Shown piece after piece: positions 7,404 to 24,885 of a DNA stretch of 24,885 bases. The notes under the pieces were generated by a model. The model ran no database searches and was not told where the DNA came from. It was given only the letters and a program-made list of their open reading frames with translations. Source of the stretch: Candidatus Omnitrophota bacterium (GTDB lineage: Bacteria; Ratteibacteria; UBA8468; MWAK01); contig JAZDPL010000074.1 in assembly GCA_043797665.1 (NCBI GenBank), positions 1 through 24,885 on the forward strand. Direction: 5' to 3'. The first letter of the stretch is position 1; every line of letters starts with the position of its first letter. Position numbers and translations under genes: made by a program.

Positions 7404-7517
7404 CCCTTTATTATACTTTTTCCCTTGGTAAGTCTGCAATCACCAGAGCCACCGGTGAAGGACACATCAAATTGGGTAAGGTAGGGGACTGTCCCCCGCG
7501 GCGACTTGGAATCTTTT

Positions 7518-7588
7518 TGGGAGGTCGCCTAACGGTAGGACTTCAGACTCTGGATCTGAGTATGGTGGTTCGAATCCACTTGTCCCAG
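7518..7588 (+). tRNA. tRNA-Gln(CTG) with an imperfect 3' acceptor strand; probable integration site
   Basis: Anticodon arm TCAGA-CTCTGGA-TCTGA, T arm GGTGG-TTCGAAT-CCACT; acceptor TGGGAGG/TGTCCCA has one G-G mismatch and one G-T pair. Confidence 0.9.
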
Positions 7589-7738
7589 CTATCAGAGTTG
7601 GACAAACAGTATCAATAATCCCTTTTTTGCCTTACCCTGCTTGCGTCGAAGAATTCTTGGAAGGTTTTCAACACTAGCAATGATTGACTCAGTTTTCGGA
7701 GAAAGGTAAAGAACAACTATTATTTGAGGTGACCACGG

Positions 7739-8839: not shown

Positions 8840-8845
8840 TTATTA

Positions 8846-9859
8846 CTACTCCCATCCTTTTATTTCGCCTATTTCAAAAAAGACCGATTTGGAGTCGGTA
8901 TTGGATACTTTAAAATCTCTTGTTTCCCCTGGAGCCAAATCAGGAATATAATCTACACCGGTGGTTGTCACATGTTCATCGGCATCATAAAACCGAATTG
9001 TAACCGGAACCTTAACATATCTTTTCTTGGAAATATTTTTGATCTTGCCGGCTACATATTGGCCAACAACTTCAAACCGGGATGTGATATCCGGATTAGT
9101 TATAACCTTGTCTCCCGTGGTTATTTCTAAAAAACTAAATTCACCGGTAGAATTCGTGGTGGGGTTACTTTTTTTCGAGGTTCTGGTATGGTATAGATAA
9201 CTACCAACGATGCCAACGATTAAAATCAGAAATAAAGAAACAATTATTGCTCCAAATATTGCATTTTTTCTGCTTTGTGGTTTTTCTTCTTTATCTCCCT
9301 GCCTTTCCCCCTGTTTTTGCAGAAGAGATTCAATAGCTTTATAACAATCCGTACAGATTCCCTGTCTCCGATACTTTCTGTCTAATCTTCTACCGCACTT
9401 CTGGCAGTAATATGTTCCTCCAAATTGCATCCGTAATTTGACTACTAAAGCAGAAAAAGGCCAGGTCTTACGTTGGAACTTATCCGTTCCGAGAAGCATC
9501 CGGATTCCGGACAGGACGGTCTCGAGTTCAAACGGTTTGGTTACGTAGTAATCAGCTCCGAACCCGTAACCTTTCAGCAGATCTTCGTCCTGTGATTTGG
9601 AGGTAAGCATGATTACCGGTAGATTTCGTGTCCGGGGGGTAGCCCTGAGATATTGTAGGACTTGAATACCATCCAGTTTGGGCATCATGATATCCAGAAT
9701 TACCAAGTCCGGTTTTTCGGTATCAATTTTTTTTAAAGCTTCCTGGCCGTCAACCGCCAGAAAAACAGTATGGCCTTCTGCGGTTAATCCTTTTTCCAGT
9801 ATAGTCTGTACTACAAGGTCATCATCAGCTACTACAATTTTAAGGCGTATTTCGGACAT
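8846..9859 (-). CDS. Receiver domain fused to a zinc ribbon, TM helix and FxLYD-like C-terminal domain
   Basis: REC (DD, LDIMMP, TKPF); CQKC...CTDC; hydrophobic AIFGAIIVSLFLILIVGIVG; G.IKN...V.IRFYD...DLAPGET..F. Confidence 0.8.
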   Translation of the reverse strand: MSEIRLKIVVADDDLVVQTILEKGLTAEGHTVFLAVDGQEALKKIDTEKPDLVILDIMMPKLDGIQVLQYLRATPRTRNLPVIMLTSKSQDEDLLKGYGFGADYYVTKPFELETVLSGIRMLLGTDKFQRKTWPFSALVVKLRMQFGGTYYCQKCGRRLDRKYRRQGICTDCYKAIESLLQKQGERQGDKEEKPQSRKNAIFGAIIVSLFLILIVGIVGSYLYHTRTSKKSNPTTNSTGEFSFLEITTGDKVITNPDITSRFEVVGQYVAGKIKNISKKRYVKVPVTIRFYDADEHVTTTGVDYIPDLAPGETRDFKVSNTDSKSVFFEIGEIKGWE

Positions 9860-9862
9860 AAA

Positions 9863-10294
9863 TTAAATTGTATATTTCTCAGGCTGGTTTTTACTCGGGC
9901 CAAAGAGCGTCTGGATTGCAAACAGAACACTGCTTATTTTGAACGGTTTAGTGATGTAATAGTTCGCTCCGAATTCGTAACCGTTTAATAAGTCTTTATC
10001 CTCTGATTTGGAGGTAAGTATGATTACCGGCAGGTTTCTTGTCTGAGGTGTGGCTTTGATGGATTGAAGAACCAGAATGCCGTCTCTTTTGGGCATCATA
10101 ATGTCCAGAATTGCCAAATCCGGTTTTTCATCCGAGATTTTTTTAAACGCCTCTTCTCCGTCACCGGCCAGGAAAACGGTGTGGCCTTCTGCGGTTAACC
10201 CTTTTTCCAGGATGGTCCGTACTACAGGGTCATCATCGGCGACTACGACTTTAAGGCGTATTCCGGATACGGGTTGGTTTTTACGGAACCACAT
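9863..10294 (-). CDS. Single-domain response regulator
   Basis: DDD, LDIMMP, LTSK, ITKPF; close paralog of the adjacent REC. Confidence 0.9.
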   Translation of the reverse strand: MWFRKNQPVSGIRLKVVVADDDPVVRTILEKGLTAEGHTVFLAGDGEEAFKKISDEKPDLAILDIMMPKRDGILVLQSIKATPQTRNLPVIILTSKSEDKDLLNGYEFGANYYITKPFKISSVLFAIQTLFGPSKNQPEKYTI

Positions 10295-10306
10295 TGTTTT
10301 TCCTCC

Positions 10307-11047
10307 TTATTTATTGGTCTTTAAAAAAATCTCCATCTCTTCTTTCAATTGAATGATTTCCCGGTTTAACCTCTGCCAGCTTTTTTCCGGGTCAACCAGA
10401 TTTTTATTGCGGCCCATCGTTTCCAACTCCAGCGCTGCGTCCATAACCTTTTTTGCCCGGAAATTGCCGGCCGAACCTCGAAGACGGTGTGCGGAAAATT
10501 CGAGTTCTTCCGAATTACGATTGTTAATCGCTGCTTCAATGCCGGCAATATATTCCGGGAGTATTTTCAGGAATGACCGAACCAGTTCCGCAGCGAAATC
10601 TGAATCTCCCTGCGCATAATCAGAAAAAACCTTCTTATCGAATGCCGGTTCTTTTTCCGGGGACAAACGTCTGCTGGAAAGTACTCTCTCTATTTTTGAC
10701 TTTAAAGCTTCTATATCGACTGGTTTAACTATGTAACCTTCGGACAAATCAGTTGCCTGCAACATGGATTCATCGGCTTCTTTGGCCGTCAACATAATGA
10801 CCGGGATAGATTTTGTTTGCCGGTTTTCTTTAAGTGTTTTTAATACTTCAGTTCCGTTTAAATCCGGCAGCATTAAATCAAGAAAGATTAAGTCCGGCTG
10901 ATGTCTTTGAGCATCCGCAATTCCCTGTTTACCTTCTGTGGCGGTAATAACTTCGTAATTACCGGATAATTCCAATACTTTTTTTACCAGGCGGCAGAAA
11001 ATCTCTTCATCATCTATCACCAGAATCTTAATTTTTTCTGAAGGCAT
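10307..11047 (-). CDS. REC-Hpt phosphorelay protein
   Basis: Receiver followed by Hpt motif AHRLRGSAGN. Confidence 0.9.
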   Translation of the reverse strand: MPSEKIKILVIDDEEIFCRLVKKVLELSGNYEVITATEGKQGIADAQRHQPDLIFLDLMLPDLNGTEVLKTLKENRQTKSIPVIMLTAKEADESMLQATDLSEGYIVKPVDIEALKSKIERVLSSRRLSPEKEPAFDKKVFSDYAQGDSDFAAELVRSFLKILPEYIAGIEAAINNRNSEELEFSAHRLRGSAGNFRAKKVMDAALELETMGRNKNLVDPEKSWQRLNREIIQLKEEMEIFLKTNK

Positions 11048-11073
11048 CTTAAACTTGATTTATTAAACTCCTA

Positions 11074-11457
11074 CTATGCAGTATTTTTTTCGATACAGGC
11101 GATAAGTTCCTCTATGTTTACCGGTTTGGCTAGAGCCGCGCAGTATGTTTCTCCGACTTTAATTCCGCCCAGCGAATCGGATTCTTCCTTCCTCATAATC
11201 GCGGTTAAGAACACGATTGGAATATGCCTGGTTTGCGCGTCGCTCTTTATCTGAAAAGCCACATCGGAACCTTCCATATCCGGCATCACGATATCAAGCA
11301 GTATCAGGTCGGGTTGGAATACCCGGGCAGCATTAAGACCCTGGGCGCCTTTGTTTTCGGTTTTAACTTCGTATTTGTCGGTCTCCTCAAGATTCAACTT
11401 TACCAGTTGCGTAAAATTTTTTTCATCATCAATAACTAAAATTTTTTTCTTAGCCAT
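11074..11457 (-). CDS. Single-domain response regulator
   Basis: KKILVIDDE, LLDIVMP, FLTA, AKP. Confidence 0.9.
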   Translation of the reverse strand: MAKKKILVIDDEKNFTQLVKLNLEETDKYEVKTENKGAQGLNAARVFQPDLILLDIVMPDMEGSDVAFQIKSDAQTRHIPIVFLTAIMRKEESDSLGGIKVGETYCAALAKPVNIEELIACIEKNTA

Positions 11458-13399
11458 TTTCTTCTCCTTTTATTTCTAAGGTAATAATTACCCGGGTCCC
11501 TTTCCCGGGGTGACTCTTGATATCTATCAGTCCTTTATGGGAATTGATTATATTCTGGGTTACCGATAAACCCAGTCCGGTTCCCCCGGATGTGCTTTTG
11601 GTGGTGAAAAAAGGTTCGAAGATTTTTTTCAGGTGTTCTTCCGGAATTCCAATTCCGGTATCTTCAATTTCCACCGATACCGCCTTTTCTCCGGGTTTAA
11701 AAAAAACTTCGTTGACGCTTTCCTGGGGCTTTTCTATTTGAACATCATTACTGCGGATAATAAGTTTTCCCCCATTAGGCATGGCTTGAATCGCATTTAA
11801 AAATATATTTACAAATACCTGTTCCATTTTATTCCGGTCAATTAAAACCTGCGGCATATCTTTTTTCATTTCCTTGACGATTTCAATATTCGAGAGTTTG
11901 GATTTACTTATTAAACTTAAAGAAACATCCAGGACCTGATTTATATCTTCGGGAAGTAAAGTCAACTTGCTGGCCCTGGAGAAATCAAGAAGCGCGGATA
12001 TGATTTTGTCAGCTCTCTGGACACCGCTTTTAATCATTTCTAAAACTTCCAGGATATTCTTCGGGTCCGAAGAGAGCTTTTTTTCCAGATAATTAACACC
12101 CATAATTATTATTCCCAGGGGATTTCTTACTTCGTGGGCTACACCACTTGCTATATAACCTATGGCGTTTAGCTTGGTACTCTGAATAAGCTGTCCTTGA
12201 GTTTCCTTGAGCTGGGTATAGGCATTTTGGAGTTCTCTTTCGGTTTTTTTCCGGGCAGTGACATTTTTGATTGTGAAACGCATACCGGCAAGGTTTCCTT
12301 GGACATCATATATTGCCAATACGTGATTTTCAATGTTCAATATTTCATTGGTTTTCGTAATTAATTCTCCGTCATCGATGGAAATGGACCCTTCCCGTGG
12401 TAACTGTTCAATCCTTTTTTCAATTTTTTCCCATGTTTCCGGCGGACATATTTTGTGGAAATGTTTCCCGATAAGTTCTTCTTTTTCGTAACCCGAAAGT
12501 TCACCGGCCTGTCTATTTAGAGAAACGATAAAGCCATTTTTATCGAGGGAATAAATCATATCGAAGGCATTTTCAAAAATTTCCCGGTATCTTTGTTCGG
12601 ATTCCTCCAGCTGTCCTTCCAGTCTTTTCTGAGCTTCCAGAAGATGGGTTGTCGTTTCCCAGTTAAAAATTTGCAGCATTCCAACCAGTGCTCCGGTAGA
12701 AATCAGGGTACAAATGGCACGGAATACCTGAACGGGAATTTTTATTATCCACAGGAACGAATCCGCATTGAGCCAGGGAGAAAGAAATATATTGCTTTTG
12801 TTGACAAACAAACCGCCTAAAATGGCATAGATTATAAAAGATAAGCTGGCCGCGACAAAACACTTCTTTACTTTTAATAATCCCGGTTTTTTTTCTTCAG
12901 ATACGTAATATAAATAGAATCCAAGACCGGTTAAAAAACTACCGGGAAAACCTAAAAGGTATCTTGTCCAGATAGTTCCTGTAAGGTGGAAATCAGAAGA
13001 TATAAAACTTAAAATACATACCAGAAGTACCAATGCCGGTGATAACCACCAGCAAAAAAGGTTAATAGGTCTATTCTTTGGTTCCGGAGTTTTTGTTTTG
13101 ATTAAACATAAGATTCGCCGGCCGAATTCCAACAAGAAAAAGTACGAAAGGGTAAGCGTGAACCAGTGGATTTCGTGTGGGAAAAATTCTTCTCCTTTGA
13201 TAAATTCCCACATATCTAAAAATTCGTTTATCCCGTGGATTATGCCAAAAACGGCCAGAAGCCATAAAATATCCGCAAGTTTGAATTGACTTCCTTTTTT
13301 GGGTTGGACAAAAATGGCAATCCCCATTACTATAAATGAAAGGCCGTAAAAGAAGAATACGATATCCAAATGCCCCTGAAACCATTGAACTAAACCCAT
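11450..13399 (-). CDS. Membrane-bound PAS sensor histidine kinase (NtrB-like kinase core)
   Basis: Multi-TM N-terminus, PAS, H-box AHEVRNPL, N-box QVFVNIFLNA, DTGIG, FEPFFTTK, GTGLGL. Confidence 0.93.
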   Translation of the reverse strand: MGLVQWFQGHLDIVFFFYGLSFIVMGIAIFVQPKKGSQFKLADILWLLAVFGIIHGINEFLDMWEFIKGEEFFPHEIHWFTLTLSYFFLLEFGRRILCLIKTKTPEPKNRPINLFCWWLSPALVLLVCILSFISSDFHLTGTIWTRYLLGFPGSFLTGLGFYLYYVSEEKKPGLLKVKKCFVAASLSFIIYAILGGLFVNKSNIFLSPWLNADSFLWIIKIPVQVFRAICTLISTGALVGMLQIFNWETTTHLLEAQKRLEGQLEESEQRYREIFENAFDMIYSLDKNGFIVSLNRQAGELSGYEKEELIGKHFHKICPPETWEKIEKRIEQLPREGSISIDDGELITKTNEILNIENHVLAIYDVQGNLAGMRFTIKNVTARKKTERELQNAYTQLKETQGQLIQSTKLNAIGYIASGVAHEVRNPLGIIIMGVNYLEKKLSSDPKNILEVLEMIKSGVQRADKIISALLDFSRASKLTLLPEDINQVLDVSLSLISKSKLSNIEIVKEMKKDMPQVLIDRNKMEQVFVNIFLNAIQAMPNGGKLIIRSNDVQIEKPQESVNEVFFKPGEKAVSVEIEDTGIGIPEEHLKKIFEPFFTTKSTSGGTGLGLSVTQNIINSHKGLIDIKSHPGKGTRVIITLEIKGEENG

Positions 13400-13472
13400 A
13401 TAGTTTTTATTATGTATTATCGTATCTTAATTGCTTTAAAAAAGTCAAATATTTGCATGGCTTCCTAAAACC

Positions 13473-13500
13473 AAACTAATTGTAACTGGATGGTGGGGTA
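13473..13500 (+). repeat. 28-bp cargo-boundary repeat, copy 1
   Basis: AAACTAATTGTAACTGGATGGTGGGGTA, 26/28 identical to 21498-21525. Confidence 0.8.
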
Positions 13501-13585
13501 GGGGAAGGTAACAAGGGAAGGGGGGGAAGCCTGTTTCCAATTCGAATCTGTCCAACTCTCCCTCCCCGCCAAAAAAAAGAGGGAA

Positions 13586-13765
13586 ACCCAAGTCTATGGC
13601 TCAAGTTCGGGCTATTTAGCCCCTAAAACCCGGTTCGAACCCAACTCTCCTTTTTAACCTGACTGAAAAAACGTGGAAACCTAAGCTGGTAGGCTCAATT
13701 TGGAGATATAAACGTACTTATTTAGTCTCTGGAATCCGGTTCGGATAGCGTCCAATCCTCCCAGC
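13586..13765 (+). repeat. Module-end/att repeat, copy 1 (180 bp)
   Basis: Aligns end to end with 22824-23003 and with 23961-24094; ends GTCCAATCCTCCCAGC. Confidence 0.92.
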
Positions 13766-13965
13766 ATTGATGGAATCAGTGCCTTTTCAGCCAGTATCTG
13801 GAAGGCTGGATGATAGACAGGGCTTAGGTTTTCGTCTTTCAGGTAAAGGTTCGAAAATACTAATACTAATTTGAGTAATTGCCTCTTTTCCTCGCCAGAC
13901 CGGGAAAGGTAAATGTCCTTAGCTTGGATAGTGTACCTCATCATTGGGGAATTATAATTGTCGCA
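13681..13965 (-). pseudogene. C-terminal remnant of a probable large serine recombinase, reading into the repeat
   Basis: AKDIY....EEKRQLLKLV(LV)FSNLYL....L...Y.PAFQIL resembles recombinase-family C-termini; continues in frame as LGGLDAIRT...; 6-bp internal duplication; no catalytic domain. Confidence 0.6.
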
Positions 13966-13967
13966 CA

Positions 13968-14024
13968 TCACCCGTTAATGTCCAGGATGCCAAAAACGCT
14001 GCAGCCGCTGATATCTTTTTCCAT
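13968..14024 (-). pseudogene. 5' stub of a class II glutamine amidotransferase (glutamate synthase domain-1-like)
   Basis: GGGAGA RBS, then MEKDISGCSVFGILDING*, resembling the Ntn SG-C start; ends where the recombinase remnant begins. Confidence 0.55.
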
Positions 14025-14035
14025 GTTCTCCCAAT

Positions 14036-14130
14036 AAAAAAGCCTCCACCGGCAACTCTGCTTCATTGAGTCGGAGCAACTTTGCTTTTGGAGGCTTCTT
14101 CGCCTTCTCTTTATTACTTCCGCTTTGAAA
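14036..14130 (-). promoter_or_regulatory. ANTAR dual-hairpin attenuator
   Basis: P1 TTC-AAAGCG-GAA, 13-nt linker, P2 GGC-GAAGAA-GCC overlapping terminator AAGCCTCCA...TGGAGGCTT-TTTT. Confidence 0.7.
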
Positions 14131-14283
14131 CTACCTACGTCTTTGCCTTATTTTCTTAACTCTTCCCTTCATCTGTTTTGGTCCATAATCAACGAATTCT
14201 TCGCACTGAAAGACGGGAAATATTCTGGGAAAGGTGCATCCTTTATCATGGACGCAAGTAACGCACAATCCTTTTTTCGCCAT
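14131..14283 (-). CDS. Small 4-Cys protein, 50 aa (absent from ORF track)
   Basis: GGGGGTG RBS; MAKKGLCVTCVHDKGCTFPRIFPVFQCEEFVDYGPKQMKGRVKKIRQRRR; starts 13 bp after the upstream stop. Confidence 0.75.
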   Translation of the reverse strand: MAKKGLCVTCVHDKGCTFPRIFPVFQCEEFVDYGPKQMKGRVKKIRQRRR

Positions 14284-14296
14284 AATTGTCACCCCC

Positions 14297-15862
14297 TTAA
14301 CCCAAAATCCGTTCTATTTCCTCCCGGTCGCAATCCATAACGTAGGGAATGCCGGAAACCTCGGCGGCTTCACGGGTCAGAGCAACAATATCCTCTCTGG
14401 AAATATACCTTAAGGCGAATTTCCGTTCACCCGCCATAAGTTGTCTCAAGCCCGTAACCAGCCGGTCGTAGTAGGTGTACATTCCGATGGCACCCACCGG
14501 AATATCTTTGAACTCTTTTCCGTACTTTGCTTTTAGCGTCTCGGCGGAAATGAATATCTGTTCTATCGTATCACCGTATTTCTTATACTCCTCGGGTACC
14601 TTACCCTTTTTTACCAGGTTTCCCACGGTCTTGGCCGCCATCGCCGCCGCAAAAGTGGCTCTGCCCATACAGATAGCTTTAACATAGGGTGCAGCCAGAG
14701 CCAATCCTTTAAAGACCTGGTCTTCCAGAGCAAACCCTCCGGCCATCCCTACCGGCGGTACGTATCCACCCTTTTGCTCAATCTTCTTTAACATCTGGTA
14801 CAGAAAAGACTCCAGTTCCACGGTGGGAATTCCCCACTCGTTCATCATCCTCCAGGGACTCATTCCCGTACCACCGCCGGCTCCATCCACGGTAAGAAGG
14901 TCCATTTTAGATTGAGAAGCACACTTCACCGCTCTGGCCAAATCCGCCGGCCGGTAAGCGCCGGTTTTCAGGGTAACGTACTTAAATCCGAGGTTCCTTA
15001 ACCGTTCCACCTCCTTACAAAACTCTTCCTCCTCAACCATACCCAGCCTTGAGTGGCGTTCAAACTCTTTGATGGCTCCCTCCTGATAAGCCTTCTTCGT
15101 TACCGGGTCCTCCGGGTCAGGATAGACTAAATAACCCCGCTTTTTAAGTTCCCGCGCTCTTTCTAACGTGGGTAACTTCACCTCCCCACCTATATCTTTG
15201 GCACCCTGGCCCCATTTGGGTTCAATCGCTTCCACGCCTAATTCCAGAACGTACTCCGGAACACCTAACCTTCCGTCTTCCACGTTGTACTGGACCACAA
15301 TCGTTCCGTGTCCGCTGTGCCATCTTTTATAACTGGTGACCCGGCGTTCCATTTCCGGAGATTTTATTACCCGTCCATTCTTAATCTCGGCATTGTGGTC
15401 CATACCGCAGACATTCTCACCCACTACCACTATCGTTCCGCAGAGGGATGCGCCGACCGCATTTTCCTCCCAGTTTATTCTTGCCACGTCGGTTGAGCCT
15501 AAAGCGCCGGTAAAGAAGGGGACATCCAATTTGATTTTGTTCTTTCCGCCAATCTCAGTGGAGACATCCACCGCGGGGAAAATTGCGCGGTCAGGGTCTG
15601 CCTCTATTCCTACTGCACCCACGCAGGTACCCTGGATGTTAAAATGAGAAAAGTCTAATGGGTAATCCTTCTCCGCCCCGGCAACAATCCTGCCGAAGGG
15701 TTGCGGGTAAATCAATTCCCTGCCCCGGATACCCGATTTGGCAACTTCACAAAACCCGATACATCCGTCCAAACAAGTAACGCAAAGCCCAGAAACCGGT
15801 GATGGAGTCACCCGGTTTCTGGTATTCGTAGCCGGACTGGCATTTGGCTTACTGTACGACAT
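14297..15862 (-). CDS. Stand-alone FMN-binding glutamate synthase family protein
   Basis: E.KWGQGAK.IGGE, TVDGAGGGTG.SP, AGG, MGRA; N-terminal CxxCxxxCxxxC; GGAGG RBS. Confidence 0.88.
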   Translation of the reverse strand: MSYSKPNASPATNTRNRVTPSPVSGLCVTCLDGCIGFCEVAKSGIRGRELIYPQPFGRIVAGAEKDYPLDFSHFNIQGTCVGAVGIEADPDRAIFPAVDVSTEIGGKNKIKLDVPFFTGALGSTDVARINWEENAVGASLCGTIVVVGENVCGMDHNAEIKNGRVIKSPEMERRVTSYKRWHSGHGTIVVQYNVEDGRLGVPEYVLELGVEAIEPKWGQGAKDIGGEVKLPTLERARELKKRGYLVYPDPEDPVTKKAYQEGAIKEFERHSRLGMVEEEEFCKEVERLRNLGFKYVTLKTGAYRPADLARAVKCASQSKMDLLTVDGAGGGTGMSPWRMMNEWGIPTVELESFLYQMLKKIEQKGGYVPPVGMAGGFALEDQVFKGLALAAPYVKAICMGRATFAAAMAAKTVGNLVKKGKVPEEYKKYGDTIEQIFISAETLKAKYGKEFKDIPVGAIGMYTYYDRLVTGLRQLMAGERKFALRYISREDIVALTREAAEVSGIPYVMDCDREEIERILG

Positions 15863-15877
15863 TTTTCCTCCTTTTCC

Positions 15878-16573
15878 CTACATAATATCCGCTGCCAAAA
15901 TAATGGCTTCCGCTATTTCACGCATAGTTTTGCGTCTATCCATACTGTACTTACGCAGTTGGAGGTATGCCTCTTCTTCTGTCAACCCCTCCTTTCTCAT
16001 CAAAATTCCTTTAGCCCGTTCAATTATTTTCCTTGCCTCTAATTCTTCCTGAATTACCTTACTTTTCACCATCAGTTCCGTGTTTTCAATCGCCACCGCA
16101 GCCTGGTTTGCGATAGCGGTTAAAACATTAATCTCGGTTTCCGTAAAATCATGCGGGTTGGAGGTATAACAATTAATCACCCCGATTACTTTGTTTTTAA
16201 CCGCCAAAGGTACGCAAAGAAGGGAACGTAACCCCTCCCTTTTCGCAATATCCTGGTATTTATACTCTTTTTCTTTGGTTACATCCTTAACCACCATAGG
16301 CTTATTCTCTTTTGCCACTTTCCCGGCAATACCCTCCCCTACTTTTAGAGGCGGTTTCTTGTTATACTCCTCACTTACGCTCTGGGTAGCCCTGATTACC
16401 AGTTCGTTTTTCTTTTCGTCAATGAGCATCAGGGAACAGATGTTTGACTCCATCAATTCCGCGATTACCACCACAACCAGACGCAGGATGTCTTCCAGAT
16501 ACAGGTCTGAGGCTATGGCTTTACTTATCTTTGACAGAGCCTTAATTCGTTCTTCATAAGGCGTCTCTTCCAC
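15878..16573 (-). CDS. GAF-ANTAR RNA-binding antiterminator
   Basis: GAF domain (GEGIAG.VA, SLLCVPL, IANQAAVAIEN) then ANTAR (RKIIERAKGILM......EEEAY..LR..SM); GTG start at 16573 after GAGGTG. Confidence 0.93.
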   Translation of the reverse strand: MEETPYEERIKALSKISKAIASDLYLEDILRLVVVVIAELMESNICSLMLIDEKKNELVIRATQSVSEEYNKKPPLKVGEGIAGKVAKENKPMVVKDVTKEKEYKYQDIAKREGLRSLLCVPLAVKNKVIGVINCYTSNPHDFTETEINVLTAIANQAAVAIENTELMVKSKVIQEELEARKIIERAKGILMRKEGLTEEEAYLQLRKYSMDRRKTMREIAEAIILAADIM

Positions 16574-16611
16574 ATTCACCTCACTAAGGGGTTGTCGCAG
16601 ACAACCCCAAC

Positions 16612-16775
16612 AAAAAAAGGGCGTTATACCCCGACAATGGGAAAGAACGCCCTTGTTCCGGAATAAAAAAGTCCTCTCCGGCATTCTTTGCCGAAAAGGA
16701 CGTCGTTATCCGAGTTTCTGACGTTGAAAAGGAGAATCCTGAGTTAAAGATTCTCCGTCCGCACTAACCTTGTGC
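16612..16775 (-). promoter_or_regulatory. Leader with tandem ANTAR hairpins and terminators
   Basis: GCAC-AAGGTTA-GTGC; TTTC-AACGTCA-GAAA; GGAT-AACGAC-GTCC overlapping terminator 16665-16701; GAAC-AAGGGC-GTTC overlapping terminator 16612-16654. Confidence 0.78.
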
Positions 16776-16798
16776 GCTATGTTTTATTTTACGTTATA

Positions 16799-16828
16799 AT
16801 TATACCTTAAGAATTTGTGTTTTGTCAA
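16799..16828 (-). promoter_or_regulatory. sigma70 promoter of the ANTAR / glutamate synthase operon
   Basis: TTGACA-N18-TATAAT on the minus strand. Confidence 0.8.
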
Positions 16829-16836
16829 ATTTCGTG

Positions 16837-19800
16837 TCAAGTGATGGTTGTTTTTGCTAAGGTGTGATAATAAGTTTGAAGACTGGTAACAGAAAAATGG
16901 CCTTGTCTCAGTTTGCTGATGGCACTGACTGCAGCCTGGGCGCCAGGAATGGTGGTAATAAGAGGGATATTATGGGCTACTGCTACAGCTCGGATGGAGA
17001 CAGTATCTTTCCTGGGTTTTACTCCGGAAGGTGTATTGATAATTAATTGAACTTCTCCGTTTTTAACATAGTCCATAATATTGAGACGGCCTTCGGAGAT
17101 TTTCAAAACTTCTTTTACCGGTATGCCGGCAGCAGCAATCAGAGCAGATGCGGTTCCGCGAGTAGCCAGAATGTCAAATCCTAAGTTTTTCAATTTCCGG
17201 CCGATAGCAGCCGCCGCTGGCTTGTCTTTATTTTTGACACTGATGAAGACATTCCCTTTTAACGGAAGTTTCGTGCCGGCTGCTAACTGGCTTTTAGCAT
17301 AGGCTAAGCCAAATTCCGTATCAATACCCATCACCTCTCCAGTGGAACGCATCTCCGGTCCTAAGACAGCATCAACTCCCAGGAACCGGTTAAAAGGGAA
17401 GACCGACTCTTTTACTGCGGTATACGGAGGCCAGATTTCTTTGGCGAACCCGAGTTTTTCTAACTTCTCGCCCAGCATTATCCGGGTAGCTAACTTAGCC
17501 AGGGGAATGCCGATAGTTTTGCTGACAAAAGGAATGGTACGGCTGGCGCGAGGATTGACCTCTAAGATATAGAGTTCATCATCCTTTACCGCAAACTGAA
17601 TATTCATTAAACCAACGACTTCAAGTTCAGCCGCCAGGGAGTAAGTTGCCTCTCGGATTTGAGTAATAGTTTTGTAGGATAAGGAATGGGGTGGCAAAAC
17701 CATGGCGCTATCCCCGGAATGGATGCCAGCCTCTTCAATATGTTCCATTATCCCGGCCAGGAGAGTAGTCTTACCGTCAGAGATAGCGTCCACATCAACC
17801 TCAGTGGCATCCTCTAAAAATCTATCTATGAGAACCGGCCGTTCTGAAGATGCCGCCACTGCGTACTTAAGGTATTCAGAGAGTTGCTCTTCGTTATAGG
17901 CTATTTCCATTGCCCTGCCGCCCAGAACATAAGAAGGTCGGACCAGAATCGGGTAGCCAATTCTTTTGGCGATGCCGGCAGCTTCTTCAAAGGAAGAGGC
18001 GGTATCGCTGGGTGGTTGTTTAAGACCCAATTTGTCAAGCAGTATCTTGAATAGTTTCCGGTTCTCTGCCTGGTCAATCTTTTCTGGTTTAGTGCCCAGG
18101 ATAGGGACGCCGTTATCTTCTAAATCAAGAGCCAGATTTAAAGGGGTCTGTCCCCCTAACTGGACGATAACTCCCTTTGGTTTTTCTGTGGCTACTATCT
18201 CCAGGATATCTTCTAAGGTGAGAGGTTCAAAATAGAGGCGGTCAGAGATGTCGTAATCAGTAGAGACTGTCTCCGGATTACAATTAATCATAATGCTCTC
18301 GTATCCAGCCTCGCGAAGCGCCAGGGAGGCGTGGACACAGGCATAGTCAAATTCAATCCCCTGACCGATGCGGTTGGGTCCGGCACCCAGGATGATTACC
18401 TTTTCTTTATTGCTTTTGGGTCTGTCTGCCACCTCATTCTCTCTTTCGTAGGTAGAGTAAAAATAGGGGGTGGCAGCAGCAAATTCCGCCGCACAGGTAT
18501 CAACTAATTTATAAGCAGGTCTGAGACCAAGGGTATGACGCAAATTGCGTATCTCTGCCTCTCTCTTGCCGGAGATACAGGCTAATTGATAATCAGAGAA
18601 TCCCAATCGTTTTGCCTCTTCCAGGATATTCTTTAGAGTTTCAATCTCTTTCTTCCCATCAGGCAGGAAAAATTTGTTGATCTCCGGGACAAACCTTTCT
18701 TTAAGATTCTTTTCCTCAGCAACAATTTCCGCAAGGTTGGAGAGAAACCAGGGGTCAATACCGGTGGTTTCATAAGCTTCTTCAATTGAAAGGAAAGTCT
18801 TCAGCCCGGTGTAAAGATAAAAGATACGGTCTGCGGTTGGCCGCCTTATGTATTCAATCAGTTCTTTCTTATCTCTAATGGCCGGTTCCTTATTATCAGC
18901 ACCCGGACCAAAGCGGTTAATCTCCAGAGAACGCAGACCTTTTCCCAGCGCTTCTTTGAATGTCCGGCCAATCGCCATTATTTCACCCACCGATTTCATT
19001 GAGGTGGTAAGAATTGAGTCAGCGAAGGGAAACTTTTCAAAGGTAAAACGGGGAATCTTGACGACACAATAGTCAATAGTTGGTTCAAAGGAGGCAGGAG
19101 TTTTTTGCGTAATATCGTTTGGTATTTCGTCCAGGGTATAACCCACCGCCAGTTTAGCCGCAATCCTGGCTATCGGGAAACCAGTGGCTTTGGAAGCTAA
19201 AGCAGAAGAACGACTTACCCTGGGGTTCATCTCAATAATTACCATCTGTCCGTCCCTGGGGTTAACGGCAAACTGGATGTTACTGCCGCCGGTATCCACG
19301 CCAATGGCTCTGATACAGGTTATGGCAGCATCGCGCATCTTCTGGTATTCCCGGTCGGTAAGGGTCTGGATGGGGGCTACCGTAATACTGTCACCGGTAT
19401 GAATCCCCATCGGGTCAAGGTTTTCTATAGAACAGATTATGACCACATTGTCTTTGCGGTCGCGCATCACCTCAAGTTCAAACTCCTTCCAGCCGATTAC
19501 GGATTCTTCAATCAGGACTTCACTGACCGGTGAAAGGGTTAAACCACGTTCTACCATGGTTTCAAACTCTACTTTGTTATATGCTATTCCACCGCCGGTG
19601 CCACCCAGAGTAAAACTTGGCCGGATGATTAAGGGAAATCCTATCCGGTCGGCAATCTGCCGGGTTTCTTTCAAGGTGTGTGCCCAGCCGCTTTCTGGAA
19701 GGTCAATTCCCGCCTTAAGCATTGTTTCCTTAAAGAGTTTCCGGTCCTCTCCGCGGTTGATAGCCTCTACTGTTGCTCCGATACATTCTACGTGAAATTT

Positions 19801-20127
19801 ATCCAGAACCTTATTTTCCGCAAGTTGCATTGTCAGGTTAAGTCCGGTCTGTCCGCCCAGGGTTGGTAGAAGGGCATCCGGTCGCTCTTTTTCAATAATC
19901 CGGGCTAAAATTTCCGGGGTGAGAGGTTCAACATAAGTGGCGTCAGCCATCTGCGGGTCAGTCATAATAGTAGCCGGGTTACTGTTGACCAGAACCACCT
20001 GATAGCCTTCTTCTTTGAGGGCTTTACAGGCTTGAGAACCAGAATAGTCAAACTCACAGGCCTGGCTGATGACAATCGGACCGGAGCCGATAATTAAAAT
20101 TTTCCTGATGTCAGTTCTCTTACCCAT
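16837..20127 (-). CDS. carB: Carbamoyl-phosphate synthase large subunit
   Basis: 1096 aa; [50 protein letters not shown], two ATP-grasp domains, MGS domain. Confidence 0.98.
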
Positions 20128-20129
20128 TT

Positions 20130-21200
20130 CTAAAGGAATCGCTCAAAGATGCTCAGAGCATCGTTTGGACCCGGACCAGCCTCCGGATGAAACTGAATAG
20201 AGAAGAAACGGTTCTTTTTGCTCTCCATCCCTTCTAAACTGCCATCGTTCAGGTTTATGTGGGTAGGCTCAACTTCACCCGGTAGTGTCTGCGGGTCTAC
20301 ACAGAACCCATGGTTCTGGGCAGTAATGAGTACTCTCCCGGTAGATATATCCTTTACCGGGTGGTTAGCGCCGTGGTGGCCAAACTTTAGTTTGTAAGTC
20401 TTTCCTCCTGATGCCAAACCTAAAATCTGATGTCCTAAACAGATACCTAAAATAGGGATACGACCCAGAATCTTCTGTACCTCCCGGACAATGGAATTGA
20501 GAGCCGCCGGGTCCCCGGGCCCATTGGATAGTACCAGGCAATCAGGTTTTTCGGTTATTATCTCCTCAGATGGTGTCTCCGCAGGCATTACCATAACCTG
20601 AAAGCCAACCCGAGTTAAGTTGCGCAGGATACTGTACTTGACCCCACAATCTAAAACGACCGTCTTGCGGGAGCCTTCCCGGTGCCACCAGTAAGCCTTT
20701 TGGGCAGTCACTCTGGCAACCAAATTCTGACCTACTACACCAGATGCTGCCTGGGCTTTGGCAACCAGTGTGTCCGGATTAGAATCTATGGTGGAGATAA
20801 CTGCCTTCATACTTCCTTTTTCCCGGACATGGATAGTCAGCATCCGGGTATCAACTTCTTCAATTCCTAAAATATTGGCTTCGCAAAAATAGTCATTGAG
20901 GGATTTTTTCGCCCGCCAGTTACTGAAGAATCTGGCTACTTCCCTGACCACAAACCCTTCTACCTGAATGCCGGAAGACTCTACATCTTCATTATTTATC
21001 CCGTAGTTGCCGATTAAAGGGTAGGTCATCATTACAATCTGGCCGCGGTAGGAGGGGTCGGTTAAGATTTCCTGGTAGCCGGTGATGCTGGTATTAAAGA
21101 CTAACTCCCCGGTAGTTTCTATTCCTTTTCCGAAAGCAATACCTTCTACCACCAAGCCGTCTTCTAATGCCAGATAAGCCCTGGTGGTTTTGGCAGGCAT
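20130..21200 (-). CDS. carA: Carbamoyl-phosphate synthase small subunit
   Basis: [41 protein letters not shown]. Confidence 0.98.
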
Positions 21201-21216
21201 AAGAGTTTGAGTGGAT

Positions 21217-21293
21217 AAAAAAACGTCCTTCTCAGCAGATTGCTAAAAAGGACGTCGTTGTCCCATCTCTAAAACAAAACACTAACGTTGTGT
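21217..21293 (-). promoter_or_regulatory. ANTAR dual-hairpin attenuator in the carAB leader
   Basis: P1 ACAC-AACGTTA-GTGT, P2 GGAC-AACGAC-GTCC overlapping terminator CGTCCTTTTTAGCA-ATC-TGCTGAGAAGGACG-T7. Confidence 0.8.
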
Positions 21294-21304
21294 CTTACTC
21301 AAAA

Positions 21305-21333
21305 AGTATATCTTAGGAATTTATATTTGTCAA
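21305..21333 (-). promoter_or_regulatory. sigma70 promoter of carAB
   Basis: TTGACA-N17-TATACT on the minus strand. Confidence 0.8.
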
Positions 21334-21382
21334 GAATTTCAATTCGGTATCAGTTATGCATTAGTTCTGCATAGATTATTGC

Positions 21383-21411
21383 GAGTTGCTGTTTAGGCTA
21401 AACAGCAACTC
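21383..21411. repeat. Perfect 14-bp palindrome with 1-nt centre
   Basis: GAGTTGCTGTTTAG-G-CTAAACAGCAACTC. Confidence 0.85.
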
Positions 21412-21497
21412 AGGGGAGAGTCGGTATGGTGGATGGGACCTGCCCACAAGGAAGGGATTCTGGGAGCCAGCAGAATCCGGTCAAGGAATATTGGAAG

Positions 21498-21525
21498 AAA
21501 CTAATTGCGACTGGATGGTGGGGTA
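21498..21525 (+). repeat. 28-bp cargo-boundary repeat, copy 2
   Basis: AAACTAATTGCGACTGGATGGTGGGGTA. Confidence 0.8.
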
Positions 21526-21537
21526 AATAGGAATTAT

Positions 21538-21862
21538 GGGGGTATCCACTTGACTCCCGTACCACAAGATGTGGTATATATAGGTAAATACTCAGTGAAC
21601 ACCGTCTGATGGTAGTGTAGGGCCTTGTGCCCGTAAAGATTACGCCCATAAAGAGCTACACTACCTCTATACATTACGGTGTTTACCGAATATTTACATA
21701 TATAGGGAATGGAAGAGCTTCGCGATCCCGCGGGAAACTTTTCTATCGTCTTGTCCAACAAGCCGTAGCAATTGACGCTTTGAGGGGCCGAGATATCAGA
21801 GGTTAACATTTCTATGCATAAACCACTATATGTAGGGGTACGTGAGTCAAGTGGATACCCCC
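21538..21862 (+). mobile_element. Internally deleted IS1595-family (ISSod11-like) element / MITE
   Basis: TIRs GGGGGTATCCACTTGACTC(C/A)CGTACC (25/26); ATTAT on both flanks; 21711-21806 encodes RASRSRGKLFYRLVQQAVAID..., an IS1595-type transposase C-terminus. Confidence 0.8.
21584..21697. mobile_element. 114-bp MITE nested in the IS1595 remnant
   Basis: TIRs GTAAATACTCAGTGAACACCGT / GTAAATATTCGGTAAACACCGT; exact 8-bp TSD ATATATAG at 21576-21583 and 21698-21705. Confidence 0.85.
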
Positions 21863-21987
21863 ATTATAAGAATATCTACCTGGTATGGTATCTAAAGATT
21901 GGGCTGGAATTGCAGAAAGTCCTTGATTTTCAATAGCATCTGTTGAGGGCATGGGATGGTTTCAAGCCACTTAAAAGTTCCAAAGTC

Positions 21988-22004
21988 ATCCACCTCTCCC
22001 AGCT
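21988..22004 (+). repeat. tRNA-Gln 3'-end copy (att-like)
   Basis: ATCCACCTCTCCCAGCT versus tRNA 7574-7590 ATCCACTTGTCCCAGCT, 15/17. Confidence 0.7.
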
Positions 22005-22077
22005 CAGCCCCACTTTCAAATCCAACCTGTTTTCTGCGAATACTTTCTCTTAGAACAAATGTAAGACAAAAAAAGAC

Positions 22078-22106
22078 TTGACATACTTTTAGATGTATGG
22101 TATACT
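22078..22106 (+). promoter_or_regulatory. vapBC promoter with operator-like palindrome
   Basis: TTGACA-N17-TATACT; CATAC-N8-GTATG within the spacer. Confidence 0.8.
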
Positions 22107-22125
22107 TTTGTAAAAAAGGAGGAAT

Positions 22126-22362
22126 ATGACTACGGCAATCGTAACCACAAAAGGACAGATTGTCATACCTTCAAGGATTCGCCGGAGATTTAACATTAAA
22201 AGAGGGACAAAGATATATATTGAAGAAAGACGCGACGAATTAGTTCTTAAAGCTGTTACTCCGGAATATTTTGAAAAAATAGCAGGAGTTTTACAAACCA
22301 GAGGAAAATTATCAAAAACGATACTTGAAGAACGTTCTAAAGATAAAGAAAGAGAGGCTTAA
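22126..22362 (+). CDS. AbrB/MazE/SpoVT-type antitoxin
   Basis: VTTKGQIVIP..IR....I..G motif; AGGAGG RBS; upstream of a PIN toxin. Confidence 0.9.
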   Translation: MTTAIVTTKGQIVIPSRIRRRFNIKRGTKIYIEERRDELVLKAVTPEYFEKIAGVLQTRGKLSKTILEERSKDKEREA

Positions 22363-22366
22363 AAAG

Positions 22367-22765
22367 ATGAAAAAAATTCTTGATGCGCACGGTCTTATGG
22401 TATTTCTTGAAAAAGAGGCCGGTTTTGACAAAGTTGAATCTTTTTTTGTTACCGCCGTAGAAAAAGATAATTATTTGTTGATGACCACGGTGAACTTTGG
22501 TGAGGTTTACTACATTGTTTTGCGCGAATGCGGACAAGATAAAGCACACGAAATTGAGAAGATAATCAGAACTCTCCCCATAGAAATAATTGATGTGAAT
22601 TTGGAACTCGCCCGGGAAGCCGGTCGTTTCAAAGCCACCAGGAAAATTTCCTACGCTGACTGTTTTGCTGCTGCTTTAACAAAACTTTACAAAGGAGAGT
22701 TGGTAACCGGGGATAAAGAATTTAAGGTGTTGGAAGATGAGATAAAAATTTCGTGGCTAATATAA
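22367..22765 (+). CDS. vapC: PIN-domain toxin
   Basis: ILDA, N.GEVYY, SYADCFAAA and LVTGD.EF acidic PIN residues; start at ATG 22367. Confidence 0.9.
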   Translation: MKKILDAHGLMVFLEKEAGFDKVESFFVTAVEKDNYLLMTTVNFGEVYYIVLRECGQDKAHEIEKIIRTLPIEIIDVNLELAREAGRFKATRKISYADCFAAALTKLYKGELVTGDKEFKVLEDEIKISWLI

Positions 22766-22823
22766 TTTTTAGAGAAATTGACTAAAATGTATTGAGGAGT
22801 AATTTATGGATAAGGATGAATTG

Positions 22824-23003
22824 ACCCAAGCCTGTGGCTCAAGTTCGGGCTATTTTGCCCCTAAACCCTGGTTCGAATCCAACTCTCCCTCTTACCTGAC
22901 CGGAAAAACGGCGGAAACCTAAGCTGGCAGGCTCAATTTGGGGATATAAATGTACTTATTCAATCTCCGGAAGACGGTTCGGATAGCGTCCAATCCTCCC
23001 AGC
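22824..23003 (+). repeat. Module-end/att repeat, copy 2 (180 bp)
   Basis: Aligns with 13586-13765; internal TGGTTCGAATCCAACTCTCCC; ends GTCCAATCCTCCCAGC. Confidence 0.92.
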
Positions 23004-23100
23004 TGCAAAGGTCATAAATTAAAAAAGAACCCCCGGTTTATCTATTCGTTACTGAAAACGCACAAGGAATTGCTCCGGGGTACACCATCCTGATATAACA

Positions 23101-23724
23101 CTACTTTAGATTATCCGCTGCGAAACTCCAATTGATCAATTTTTCGAGAACAGCGTTGAGGTAATCCGCGCGTCGGTTCTGATAGTCCAAATAGTAGGCA
23201 TGTTCCCACACGTCGATGGTCAATATCGGCTTCATCCCCTTGGTCAAAGGCACATCGGCATTACTGGTCTTGACCACCTTGAGCTTGCCACCATCCAGCA
23301 CAAGCCACGCCCAGCCGCTGCCGAACTGACTCATTGCTGTAGCCGCCAACTCCTTCCTGCATATGTCTAAGGTTCCAAAGGAAGCCTCAATCTTTATTTT
23401 TAATACTGCAGGTGGTTCACCACCGCCCTTCGGAGTCAAACTGTTCCAGTAAAATGCGTGGTTCCACGCTTGCGCGGCATTATTGAAAATCGCAGTCTTA
23501 TCCACTTTACCGGATGTTGCGGTTATGATTTTTTCCAACGGCAAGGGCGCAAACTCAGTTCCTGCTATCAGCTTATTCAGGTTATCGACATATGTTTTGT
23601 GATGCTTGTCATAATGGAAAGAAATCGTATTTGCGGTTATTACTGGGTCCAGCGCGTTATTTGCGTAGGGCAGTGATGGTAGAACATGCGGAACGGCACT
23701 TTCAATCTTGTCATCGCTCATCAT
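23101..23724 (-). CDS. sodB: Superoxide dismutase, probably Fe-type
   Basis: [34 protein letters not shown]. Confidence 0.93.
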
Positions 23725-23823
23725 TTTTCCTCCAATGTGGTGAAATAAAAGCCGCTAACGCTATTTTTTAGCGGCACACCGCTTGCGGCCTATTTGCTGC
23801 AAGGGCTTATTGGAAAACCGACT

Positions 23824-23961
23824 TCAGGTCTTAAGGAATGCCAGCAGGTCGGCGTTGAGCTGGTCTTTGTGCGTGTCCGCAAGGCCGTGAGGTGCGCCCG
23901 CGTAGATCTTTAGGGTCGTGTTCCTGACCAGTTTCGCTGAACGGAGAGCCGCGGCACCGAT
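23824..23961 (-). pseudogene. C-terminal 45 aa of a non-heme haloperoxidase-like alpha/beta hydrolase
   Basis: [45 protein letters not shown]; cut where repeat copy 3 begins. Confidence 0.8.
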
Positions 23962-24094
23962 TCGAATCCACCTTTTCCTCATCAACCTGACCGGAAAAAC
24001 AGCGGAAACCTAAGCTGGCAGGCTCATCTTGGGGATATAGACGTACTTATTCAGTCCTTGGAAGGCGGTTCGGATAACGTCCAATCCTCCCAGC
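23961..24094 (+). repeat. Module-end/att repeat, copy 3 (134 bp, 5'-truncated at TTCGAATCCACC)
   Basis: Aligns with the 3' part of copies 1 and 2; ends GTCCAATCCTCCCAGC. Confidence 0.9.
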
Positions 24095-24106: not shown

Positions 24107-24373
24107 TTAAGGGAAAAATCGATAAATATCTTTTCGGTGGAGACACCGGACGAAGAGAATAACGTTATCCTGCTGAACAATTCCTAACCGATAATCACCC
24201 ACTCTAAGGCGAAAATGGTCTTTTACGCTTTGAATTTTCACTACACCCGAAATTTCTTTTAAGGAATGGGATTGTTCAATTTGGGCAATCAAATACTCTA
24301 TTCTTTTTCTGATGCTTTTTTCGGTTATCTTTTTAATATCCTTTGCAAAAGAGCCGGTGAACTCAATCTGCAT
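24107..24373 (-). CDS. RelE/ParE-family toxin
   Basis: IEFT.SF.KDIKK, FRLRVGDYRLG, HRKDIYR.FP. Confidence 0.9.
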   Translation of the reverse strand: MQIEFTGSFAKDIKKITEKSIRKRIEYLIAQIEQSHSLKEISGVVKIQSVKDHFRLRVGDYRLGIVQQDNVILFVRCLHRKDIYRFFP

Positions 24374-24566
24374 GGAGAATATCTATTATCTCTTGTTTAT
24401 TTGCTCGTCCTGTATGTAGTCCCTTTTCAATCGCTTTGTTGAGTCCAATGTCTTCAAATACTTCTAAAAAAGTCTGGTAGAAAAAATCCTTTTTTTCTTC
24501 TATTGCCTGCTCTACCACATTTTTTAAGGTTTTTTCTAAACCAACCACTCCAGATTCTGTTCTCAT
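24363..24566 (-). CDS. Putative cognate antitoxin
   Basis: Small ORF with E..EDIGL..AIE.G motif overlapping the toxin start; GGAGG RBS before ATG 24566. Confidence 0.75.
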   Translation of the reverse strand: MRTESGVVGLEKTLKNVVEQAIEEKKDFFYQTFLEVFEDIGLNKAIEKGLHTGRANKQEIIDILHAD

Positions 24567-24614
24567 CGGGACCTCCGTATATCTTTTTTTCTGCAAGGAA
24601 TTTAAACTTCCACT

Positions 24615-24662: not shown

Positions 24663-24691
24663 ACTGAAATTCCGACATAAGAAGTTTTTTA
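24663..24691 (+). repeat. 29-bp repeat, copy 2 (dif-like)
   Basis: Exact inverted copy of 2478-2506; continues as CATAA-N8-TTATG. Confidence 0.85.
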
Positions 24692-24811
24692 TGCTGAAAC
24701 CCGCATCCTGATTGCCATCCGGTAGTTTTTTGTGTAATCCCAGACAATAATTTCTGATTAAGCCGAAAGGCTAATCCCTGTCTTATATTATATCGCATCC
24801 TCCCTCCAAAC

Positions 24812-24840
24812 TTGACACAGGTTTTTATTTATGTTAAAAT
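24812..24840 (+). promoter_or_regulatory. sigma70 promoter for a gene starting at or beyond the window edge
   Basis: TTGACA-N17-TAAAAT with TGn; an ATG lies at 24877. Confidence 0.65.
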
Positions 24841-24885
24841 CCTAATAGTAAATAAAATAGTATACAAGCGGAATATATGGAGTCC

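Follow-up and report, generated by a model that had tools for sequence, protein, structure and literature searches.

What becomes of a recombinase whose own attachment site lies within the last codons of its gene? The question is raised by a stretch of DNA from a Candidatus Omnitrophota bacterium (GCA_043797665.1, contig JAZDPL010000074.1, positions 1–24,885, forward strand), the whole 24,885 nt of which we call the window. Downstream of a tRNA-Gln(CTG) gene it carries three repeats whose minus strands each encode a 27-aa tail (13681–13764, 22919–23002 and 24010–24093), and the first of these is fused to the remnant of a recombinase gene. Their sequences identify the repeats as attachment-site arms (attR/attP side) of elements with tRNA-Gln-targeting large serine integrases (LSIs), each arm encoding a C-terminal tail of the integrase. 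We hold with great confidence that the crossover falls inside the 3' end of the integrase gene, so that the C-terminus of the enzyme depends on the integration state. We also consider it likely that the tail is functional. A role for the tail in the direction of recombination, argued in part from structural models, is plausible, and we place it a little below an even chance.

The original prediction had read one indel-free frame on the minus strand of the three repeats and on the antisense strand of the tRNA (7529–7588), and all four translations proved exact. Copy 1 does run in frame with the recombinase-like remnant, continuing an open reading frame (ORF) of 96 aa (13681–13971). There are four DAIRT-type copies, of which the window has three and contig C90 the other; none has a gap within the 84 coding nt, the first gaps lying about 110 nt from the junction, and the tRNA-Gln register is borne out by the core TCCCAGC, common to the tRNA and all the arms. 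By itself the indel pattern is weak, amounting to two indel events over only some 55 further homologous nt. All three repeats are real, but a fourth arm with the same core had been overlooked at 21892–22002 (minus strand); its primary motif is mutated and its 36-aa tail belongs to a second, FRTxKW class. Arm 1, an attP-type left arm, encodes a tail of the YIPK class and has its primary motif at 13739–13744, 20 nt from the junction. Arms 2 and 3 are orphan tails, because unrelated codons or, as in arm 3, a stop precede them in frame.

To which enzyme did the remnant (13765–13971, minus strand) belong? Alone it gives no Pfam match, and it was identified through its homologues, with homology from about ORF residue 10. 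As had been predicted, it matches recombinases: it is 65% identical to P0001 (E 4.7e-24; 1 match of 133 candidates) and 59% identical over 66 aa to P0014, a 515-aa LSI with Resolvase, Recombinase and zinc-ribbon domains. Resolvase and Recombinase domains are carried by 11 of the 13 longer homologues, and from residue 1 to about 480 models of two homologues match the solved structures of the Bxb1, SPbeta, phiC31 and LI integrases, the sequence past that point (linker plus tail) being an appended extension. The LSI architecture of Resolvase, Recombinase and zinc-ribbon/coiled-coil domains is thus present in full-length homologues, and the window holds a C-terminal remnant only. Of the 50 loci with DNA, 25 are anchored to a tRNA or tmRNA at the gene end (2 of them mis-anchored), and the ORF crosses the 3' end of the RNA in 23 of these 25; the family targets at least 7 tRNA types as well as tmRNA.

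P0001 led to 6 loci among metagenome contigs and to 1 among genome contigs, a DAIRT tail being shown in none; the repeat as DNA was matched in 3/61 related genomes, substantially only in G001; and plasmid and phage matches were distant (25–30%). A profile of the tail found matches in 9/401 genomes, one of them a profile member and several of them chance matches in ordinary genes. The ESM Atlas returned unnamed clusters and one weak zinc-ribbon lead, and DNA and back-translated tail patterns had 0 matches in viral contigs. Other recombinase loci were met in passing. In an intact tRNA-Gln element (L001; C75 24610–31427) the genes after the full-length integrase encode ThiF (E1) and prokaryotic E2 proteins, and this ubiquitin-like module may serve in defence. 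At C63 2144–2600 an integrase remnant ends in tRNA-like antisense and faces a 3'-end fragment of carA, and at C37 3112–4371 there is another serine recombinase with a 674-codon frame and a long, low-complexity C-terminal run-on.

Both C-termini occur among close relatives. In the tail-bearing state, P0001 passes from WLG into a GLDAIRT... tail nearly identical to that of the window. In the tRNA state, L019, which is 61% identical to P0001, passes from WLG into EVDSN..., the antisense of tRNA-Gln(CTG). The intact integrase on contig C75 of this genome, a member of a more distant subfamily (27% to P0014), likewise reads WLG-EVDSN... in tRNA-Gln(CTG). In the public run X1 one contig connects the end of the tRNA (7589) with position 13782 of the remnant; the join is in frame because 16 letters replace 16, and at 85% likeness the contig may come from a related strain. 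In the window remnant, the 16 nt adjoining the core are unlike those of relatives. In prophage G067 the integrase ends in tRNA-Leu and an orphan tail at the far end of the record is 57–59% identical to tails fused to tRNA-free relatives. The original claim that attP lies inside the recombinase gene and makes its C-terminus integration-dependent is therefore upheld by both states in close relatives and, within a single element, by one of three prophages tested. Its companion, that the tRNA-integrated form carries a DSN tail, holds at other loci (L019, C75 and the public contig) but not at the window tRNA-Gln, into which no integrase reads because two in-frame stops precede the junction. Nor is the DSN tail a conserved alternative, since it ranges from an immediate stop to 34 residues.

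How common is each end? Among 123 homologues of at least 400 aa, sorted by regular expressions on protein sequences only and with the stop class inferred, 46 have DSN-type antisense ends, 43 stop 3–4 residues past the junction and 27 have DxxRT tails, which leaves 7 without a class, so that 89/123 end in tRNA-type scraps. The DxxRT tails measure 27–37 residues in 23 of 27 cases, there are at least four unrelated tail classes, and all 13 full-length members listed in cluster P0020 are tail-bearing. A further tail class, SGRLDAIRT...PTELENQLD, occurs in related genomes at L112, L116 and L122 (G007, G005 and G006, respectively), one of which adjoins an antisense tRNA-like frame.

We propose the following mechanism. 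The integrase gene runs antisense toward its site, with the crossover in its last codons, where W-L-G corresponds to the tRNA acceptor end read in antisense. In a circular element, or in a tandem position behind another element, the gene would continue into the attP arm and gain a conserved tail of 25–40 aa; upon insertion at a tRNA it gains only a stop or a scrap of antisense, and the tail is left at the far end of the element. By means of a flexible linker the tail may bend back to the base of the coiled coil in the zinc-ribbon domain, the place where the recombination directionality factor (RDF) binds, and either hold the integration-competent state or exclude the RDF; we infer this polarity because the incoming circle makes only the tail-bearing form and must integrate. 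The circle would thus make the integrase, and the integrated copy (attL) would make a tail-less form that is weaker or permissive for excision. The catalytic and DNA-binding core is intact in both states.

Is the tail kept as protein, or is it merely DNA that happens to be translated? In the tRNA-Gln gene, the attB/attL arm (7518–7589, plus strand; antisense frame LGQVDSN...), the outer motif is the T-loop GTTCGA (7568–7573), read as DSN and lying 15 nt from the junction, whereas in the arms it lies 20 nt from the junction and is read as RT. This is the 5-bp shift described for serine integrases, whose outer DNA motif stands 5 bp nearer the centre of attB than of attP (PMC3783163; unless stated otherwise, this and the other papers cited here are drawn on in part). 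Because the first nine codons (27 nt) are almost invariant at the DNA level, synonymous sites included, the DAIRT motif is best explained, from sequence, as mostly a DNA-binding motif of the integrase. By eye, a 6-nt inverted pair flanks the window tRNA junction, and the arm on the gene side showed no inverted TTCG motif.

The same invariance would suit an incidental tail, the arms being kept as DNA (an att site with its hitch-hiking flank) and the ORF running on to the next stop behind an enzyme complete at about residue 485. So would the end of the canonical LSI fold near residue 480, the presence of at least four unrelated tail classes, the 89 of 123 full-length genes that have no such tail, and the lack of significant selection among the four DAIRT copies. 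Beyond the binding site, however, a codon-position signal is found. Between Gln-type and Asn-type tails synonymous sites are saturated and the nonsynonymous difference (pN) is 0.33; over codons 10–23 their consensus sequences differ at 2/14 second positions and at 18/28 first and third positions (P=0.003), the Asn-type tails having first been found by a protein profile, which biases toward coding signal. Ten FRTxKW copies from three genomes, retrieved by DNA similarity, show 21/45 synonymous alleles where 10.9 are expected (P=1e-5); one copy of this class has decayed to a stop. Between the window tails and those of the full-length P0060 and P0081 there is a match in register (0–10 of 200,000 shuffles), and the same tail peptides are found on integrases with different junction sequences. 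The clustering of tail lengths at 27–37 residues and a confident helical model with docking for one class also speak against an incidental tail, which we regard as quite unlikely. These sequence comparisons place the tail under protein-level selection across tail classes.

Could such selection act on the lifetime of the protein? In mycobacteriophages with attP inside the repressor gene the circle-encoded form is short-lived, and the tail could mainly be a stability switch of this kind, a degron on the circle-encoded integrase. Of the 27 DxxRT tails, 8 end in Ala and 4 in AA, versus 3.8% and 0.25% of 1,612 long ORFs in this genome, a comparison in which the sequences are not independent and the background is from another organism; Ala is likewise the last residue of several DNA-derived tails. 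The degron-like '...LPA' end on which the idea was first built is not a family trait, however, being found in 0/27: P0001 ends in LPS, P0060 in VSP and P0081 in EVV, and the conserved residues of the tail are internal rather than terminal. We consider a degron unlikely, though slightly less so than an incidental tail. A different origin, as a C-terminal scrap of the R subunit of a type I restriction enzyme (EcoEI_R_C), was suggested by a match of the tail profile to such a C-terminus (L098; E 1.3e-4, in one of 401 genomes). Pfam, however, gives nothing for the tails even at E up to 10, their LG start is the tRNA core, and P0001, P0060, P0081 and L094 are integrases continuous with the tail. 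The close likeness of the L098 C-terminus to the window tail was taken as coincidence, and we find this origin, which the continuous proteins contradict, scarcely credible.

Where on the enzyme would the tail act? In the model of P0020, of the FRTxKW class, tail helices at 518–549 with a predicted local distance difference test score (pLDDT) of 70–82 follow a disordered linker and lie outside the region aligned to solved structures. The complex of tail and core, modelled as two pieces of one chain with its own alignment, scored 0.70, against 0.00 for the best of 3 controls, on a measure of model confidence rather than binding whose mark was reached by 116/157 solved pairs and 2/215 mismatched pairs. 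The runs agree in at least 88% of contacts, with a partner pLDDT of at least 72, and the contacts (343–350 and 418–483) flank the coiled coil at 352–416. Mapped onto the SPbeta RDF site by topology only, the model supports a docked tail that would take the place of the RDF at the coiled-coil base. By extension, the DAIRT/YIPK tail of the window may dock in a similar way.

A dock that coincides topologically with the RDF site would also be expected if the polarity were reversed, that is, if the tail were a fused RDF favouring excision and tandem tail-bearing copies mobilised the array. SPbeta integrase–RDF fusions are excisive (PMC11722253), and full-length tail-bearing genes are common (27/123; all 13 listed in cluster P0020). 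An incoming circle, on the other hand, makes only the tail-bearing form and must integrate, and the arm that carries the tail has attP-type motif spacing. To us this reversal seems about as improbable as an incidental tail, and we prefer a tail that favours integration.

Several points weigh against a selected, docking tail that changes with the integration state, among them the limits stated above for the end classes, the Asn-type tails, the docking score and its topological mapping. The check on selection called for by the original prediction, positive at the family level, is not significant within the four DAIRT copies, where 8/19 differences are synonymous over all codons (P=0.32) and 8/17 over codons 10–27 (P=0.13), and the five related orphan tails downstream of a tRNA-Asn on contig C61 give P=0.064 among themselves. 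Docking was modelled for the FRTxKW class and not for the DAIRT/YIPK class of the window, and the AlphaFold model of a YIPK-class protein, with few tail-bearing rows in its alignment, gives the tail a pLDDT under 50. In two of the three prophages tested the far end carried no matching tail. No excised circle was seen, and other arm–arm joints, which may be hybrids of repeat copies, were not counted as excisions. Downstream of two full-length tail-bearing genes, which may stand in tandem, no tRNA was found within the 24 and 28 kb to the contig ends.

What else does the gene end carry? The family has an SN motif whose Ser codon is TCG in 35/38 loci (47 aligned) versus 185/1,338 other serines, the loci not being independent, and four phage loci keep TCGAAC at this position in another reading frame. 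In 14 of the 25 anchored loci TCGAA(C/T) and the T-loop motif are exactly 105 nt apart, and TCGAA(C/T) occurs 42 times in the zone 80–240 nt out (4,025 nt) versus 8 times in the zone 300–1,400 nt out (27,500 nt). In the window remnant it lies 90 nt from the junction, where the accessory motif occupies 13849–13854 inside the SN codons, and arms 1–3 each have one on the other side, 126–128 nt out: GTTCGA at 13633–13638 (plus strand; 126 nt to the junction, 106 nt to the primary motif) for arm 1, 22871–22876 for arm 2 and a variant at 23960–23965 for arm 3. The spacing of about ten helical turns and the direct orientation suggest that these direct-repeat TCGAAC motifs are candidate accessory binding sites. 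Put together, the observations can be read as a widespread clade of tRNA-targeting LSIs whose directionality factor is part of the integrase, a detachable tail at the RDF site that recombination itself would add or take away, with unrelated tail classes as interchangeable modules at one tRNA site and in-phase T-loop-like accessory sites within the gene some 10 helical turns away. As a whole we advance this only tentatively and think it rather less likely than not; if true, serine integrases would have a way of setting direction that edits itself and needs no RDF.

What, then, is the window? We consider it very likely that the stretch 3' of the tRNA-Gln is a decayed tandem array of elements inserted by LSIs that target tRNA 3' ends. 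It is a graveyard of such elements, without an intact integrase, in which only arm 1 is fused to a short remnant and no copy could yield a complete enzyme. Four arms lie in the window, three on C90 and five on C61, and many segments lack an integration module. The insertion sequence (IS) end that closes the window (24663–24885, no strand assigned) is preceded by 12 nt that are also found behind an IS end on C90; because of this common sequence beside IS ends, the array probably continues on C90 with the three arms there. The array begins at a tRNA-Gln that looks like a duplicate of the native locus, since a leuB 3'-end scrap precedes it (7433–7470, plus strand; 89% over 38 nt to C75); leuB scrap and tRNA form a second copy of the native leuB–tRNA-Gln locus on C75, a gene order also found in L019. 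The two tRNA-Gln(CTG) genes of the genome, at window 7433–7589 and near C75 24340–24672, are both present in G001 as well. A second array (C61 57173–78656, 63802–63975) stands 3' of tRNA-Asn; it comprises five orphan tails as well as an integrase remnant that is frameshifted and belongs to a third tail class.

The cargo between the arms is varied. The first segment (7590–13473, minus strand), without an integrase and with in-frame stops at the tRNA junction, encodes an HD-GYP response regulator, more response regulators (one with Hpt) and a PAS histidine kinase. A glutamate-synthase-domain gene, a GAF-ANTAR regulator, carB and carA follow arm 1 (14297–21200, minus strand; domain scan and comparison of flanks in relatives); this block is conserved in relatives with other flanks and is probably host-type DNA inside the array. 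A second carB, only 52% identical to that of the window (16837–21200), is found at C89 39805–42999. By domain scan, an AbrB/MazE-type antitoxin and a PIN-domain toxin occupy 22126–22765 (plus strand) and an Fe/Mn superoxide dismutase 23101–23724 (minus strand), and a ParE/RelE-type toxin with a RelB-like antitoxin comes last (24107–24596, minus strand). In G001 the same RelE-type pair adjoins an arm of the other tail class and different DNA follows the tRNA, from which we conclude that array segments have been shuffled. In several integrase-less segments TAG replaces the TGG (Trp) codon before the junction (window 7590 and 24095, C90 14661, C61 69943), and it may mark non-autonomous cassettes. 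Older, nested att-like arms, one reading GELDDVRT, lie inside longer repeats (window about 13551–13575, near 6211 in L128, and C61 61597–63000).

A 27-nt motif, present in the window at 13474–13500 and 21499–21525 (both plus strand) and distal to most arms, is possibly a cis site shared by these elements. It lies 134–266 nt beyond the junction in 7/12 arms checked and 479 nt beyond it in an eighth, and is absent in 4; the genome has 26 copies, many at other intergenic places, and 1.3 Mb of shuffled sequence had 0 matches. Other small repeats are a palindromic hairpin resembling repetitive extragenic palindromes (21383–21411), repeated on several contigs, and a 335-nt element resembling miniature inverted-repeat transposable elements, with 43-nt inverted ends (21533–21867). 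At 81–2506 an IS has a DUF6788 ORF and a DDE transposase, and its end is inverted-complementary to 24663–24702.

Why would this matter? Serine integrases are widely used genome-engineering tools whose directionality is explained by a separate RDF; if a serine integrase adds or removes a tail at the RDF site by its own recombination, this would be a second natural solution to directionality. As 89/123 database copies of the family have no tail, pipelines that mine integrases may be assaying a truncated enzyme. The outer motif of the family is the T-loop common to all tRNAs, and retargeting among tRNAs is therefore explained. A tRNA-targeting family of serine integrases contradicts a statement of 2015 by which tRNA genes are targets of tyrosine integrases alone (PMC4383910). 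For tRNA-targeting LSIs, no description of conserved tail classes, docking site or accessory motifs was found in a literature taken mostly as titles and abstract openings, supplements aside. The main text of PMC10083194 has no occurrence of 'tRNA', and the parts of PMC12884075 and PMC12424338 covered have nothing on conserved tails or accessory motifs. TIGER (Mageeney et al. 2020) may bear on novelty, and its supplements and those of papers mining large serine recombinases could list such elements.

How does this compare with known systems? To judge from the published accounts, a state-dependent C-terminus is already in print: for DsiB both arrangement and idea were put forward in 2011, and the effect was shown for the tyrosine integrase of Mx8. 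What is new here is the fourth window arm with its second tail class, the modelled docking of that class, and the TCGAAC repeats inside the gene, about 105 bp from the site. The SSV-type archaeal integrases, offered originally as an analogue, also have the att site inside the gene and tRNA targets, but they are 'suicidal' tyrosine enzymes in which integration separates the catalytic domain and inactivates the gene (PMC8371274). The analogy is poor because here, in the serine family, the catalytic and DNA-binding domains stay intact: the core ends at about residue 480, before the crossover, and integration takes away no more than an appended tail. Closer parallels are Mx8 and DsiB. In Mx8 (IntP/IntX) attP likewise lies inside the integrase gene and integration gives a new 3' end, which alters activity and does not destroy the enzyme (reviewed in PMC6070905), although that tyrosine recombinase is without the zinc-ribbon or coiled-coil directionality module. 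In the ssrA islands of Dehalococcoides the DsiB recombinase gene overlaps attL and has its stop codon outside the island, and its authors suggested that the gene may work only when it is on the circle or has another island next to it in front; the incidental tail considered above corresponds to the 'trivial' option noted for DsiB (PMC3146451, McMurdie et al. 2011). Our loci share with these islands the overlap with attL and an outside stop (23/25 anchored loci, C75 and L019) and a tandem arrangement in which many islands lack an integration module. The target there is ssrA (tmRNA) and here tRNA-Gln, some relatives here using tmRNA, and where the account of DsiB reports divergent C-termini and no conserved tail, we find conserved tail classes under selection. 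DsiB is likened here by its published description, and none of the six-gene module of its islands (DsiA, RecF-like, ParB, Mom-like) was found among the window ORFs scanned. With canonical LSIs (LI/A118, SPbeta, Bxb1 and phiC31) the family shares the catalytic, recombinase and zinc-ribbon/coiled-coil architecture and the 5-bp shift of the outer motif between attB and attP, but there a separate RDF sets the direction and here the candidate is a state-dependent tail (PMC3783163, PMC11722253). It also differs from them in taking the tRNA T-loop as its outer motif, with no inverted copy seen by eye on the other arm and with direct repeats about 105 bp away.

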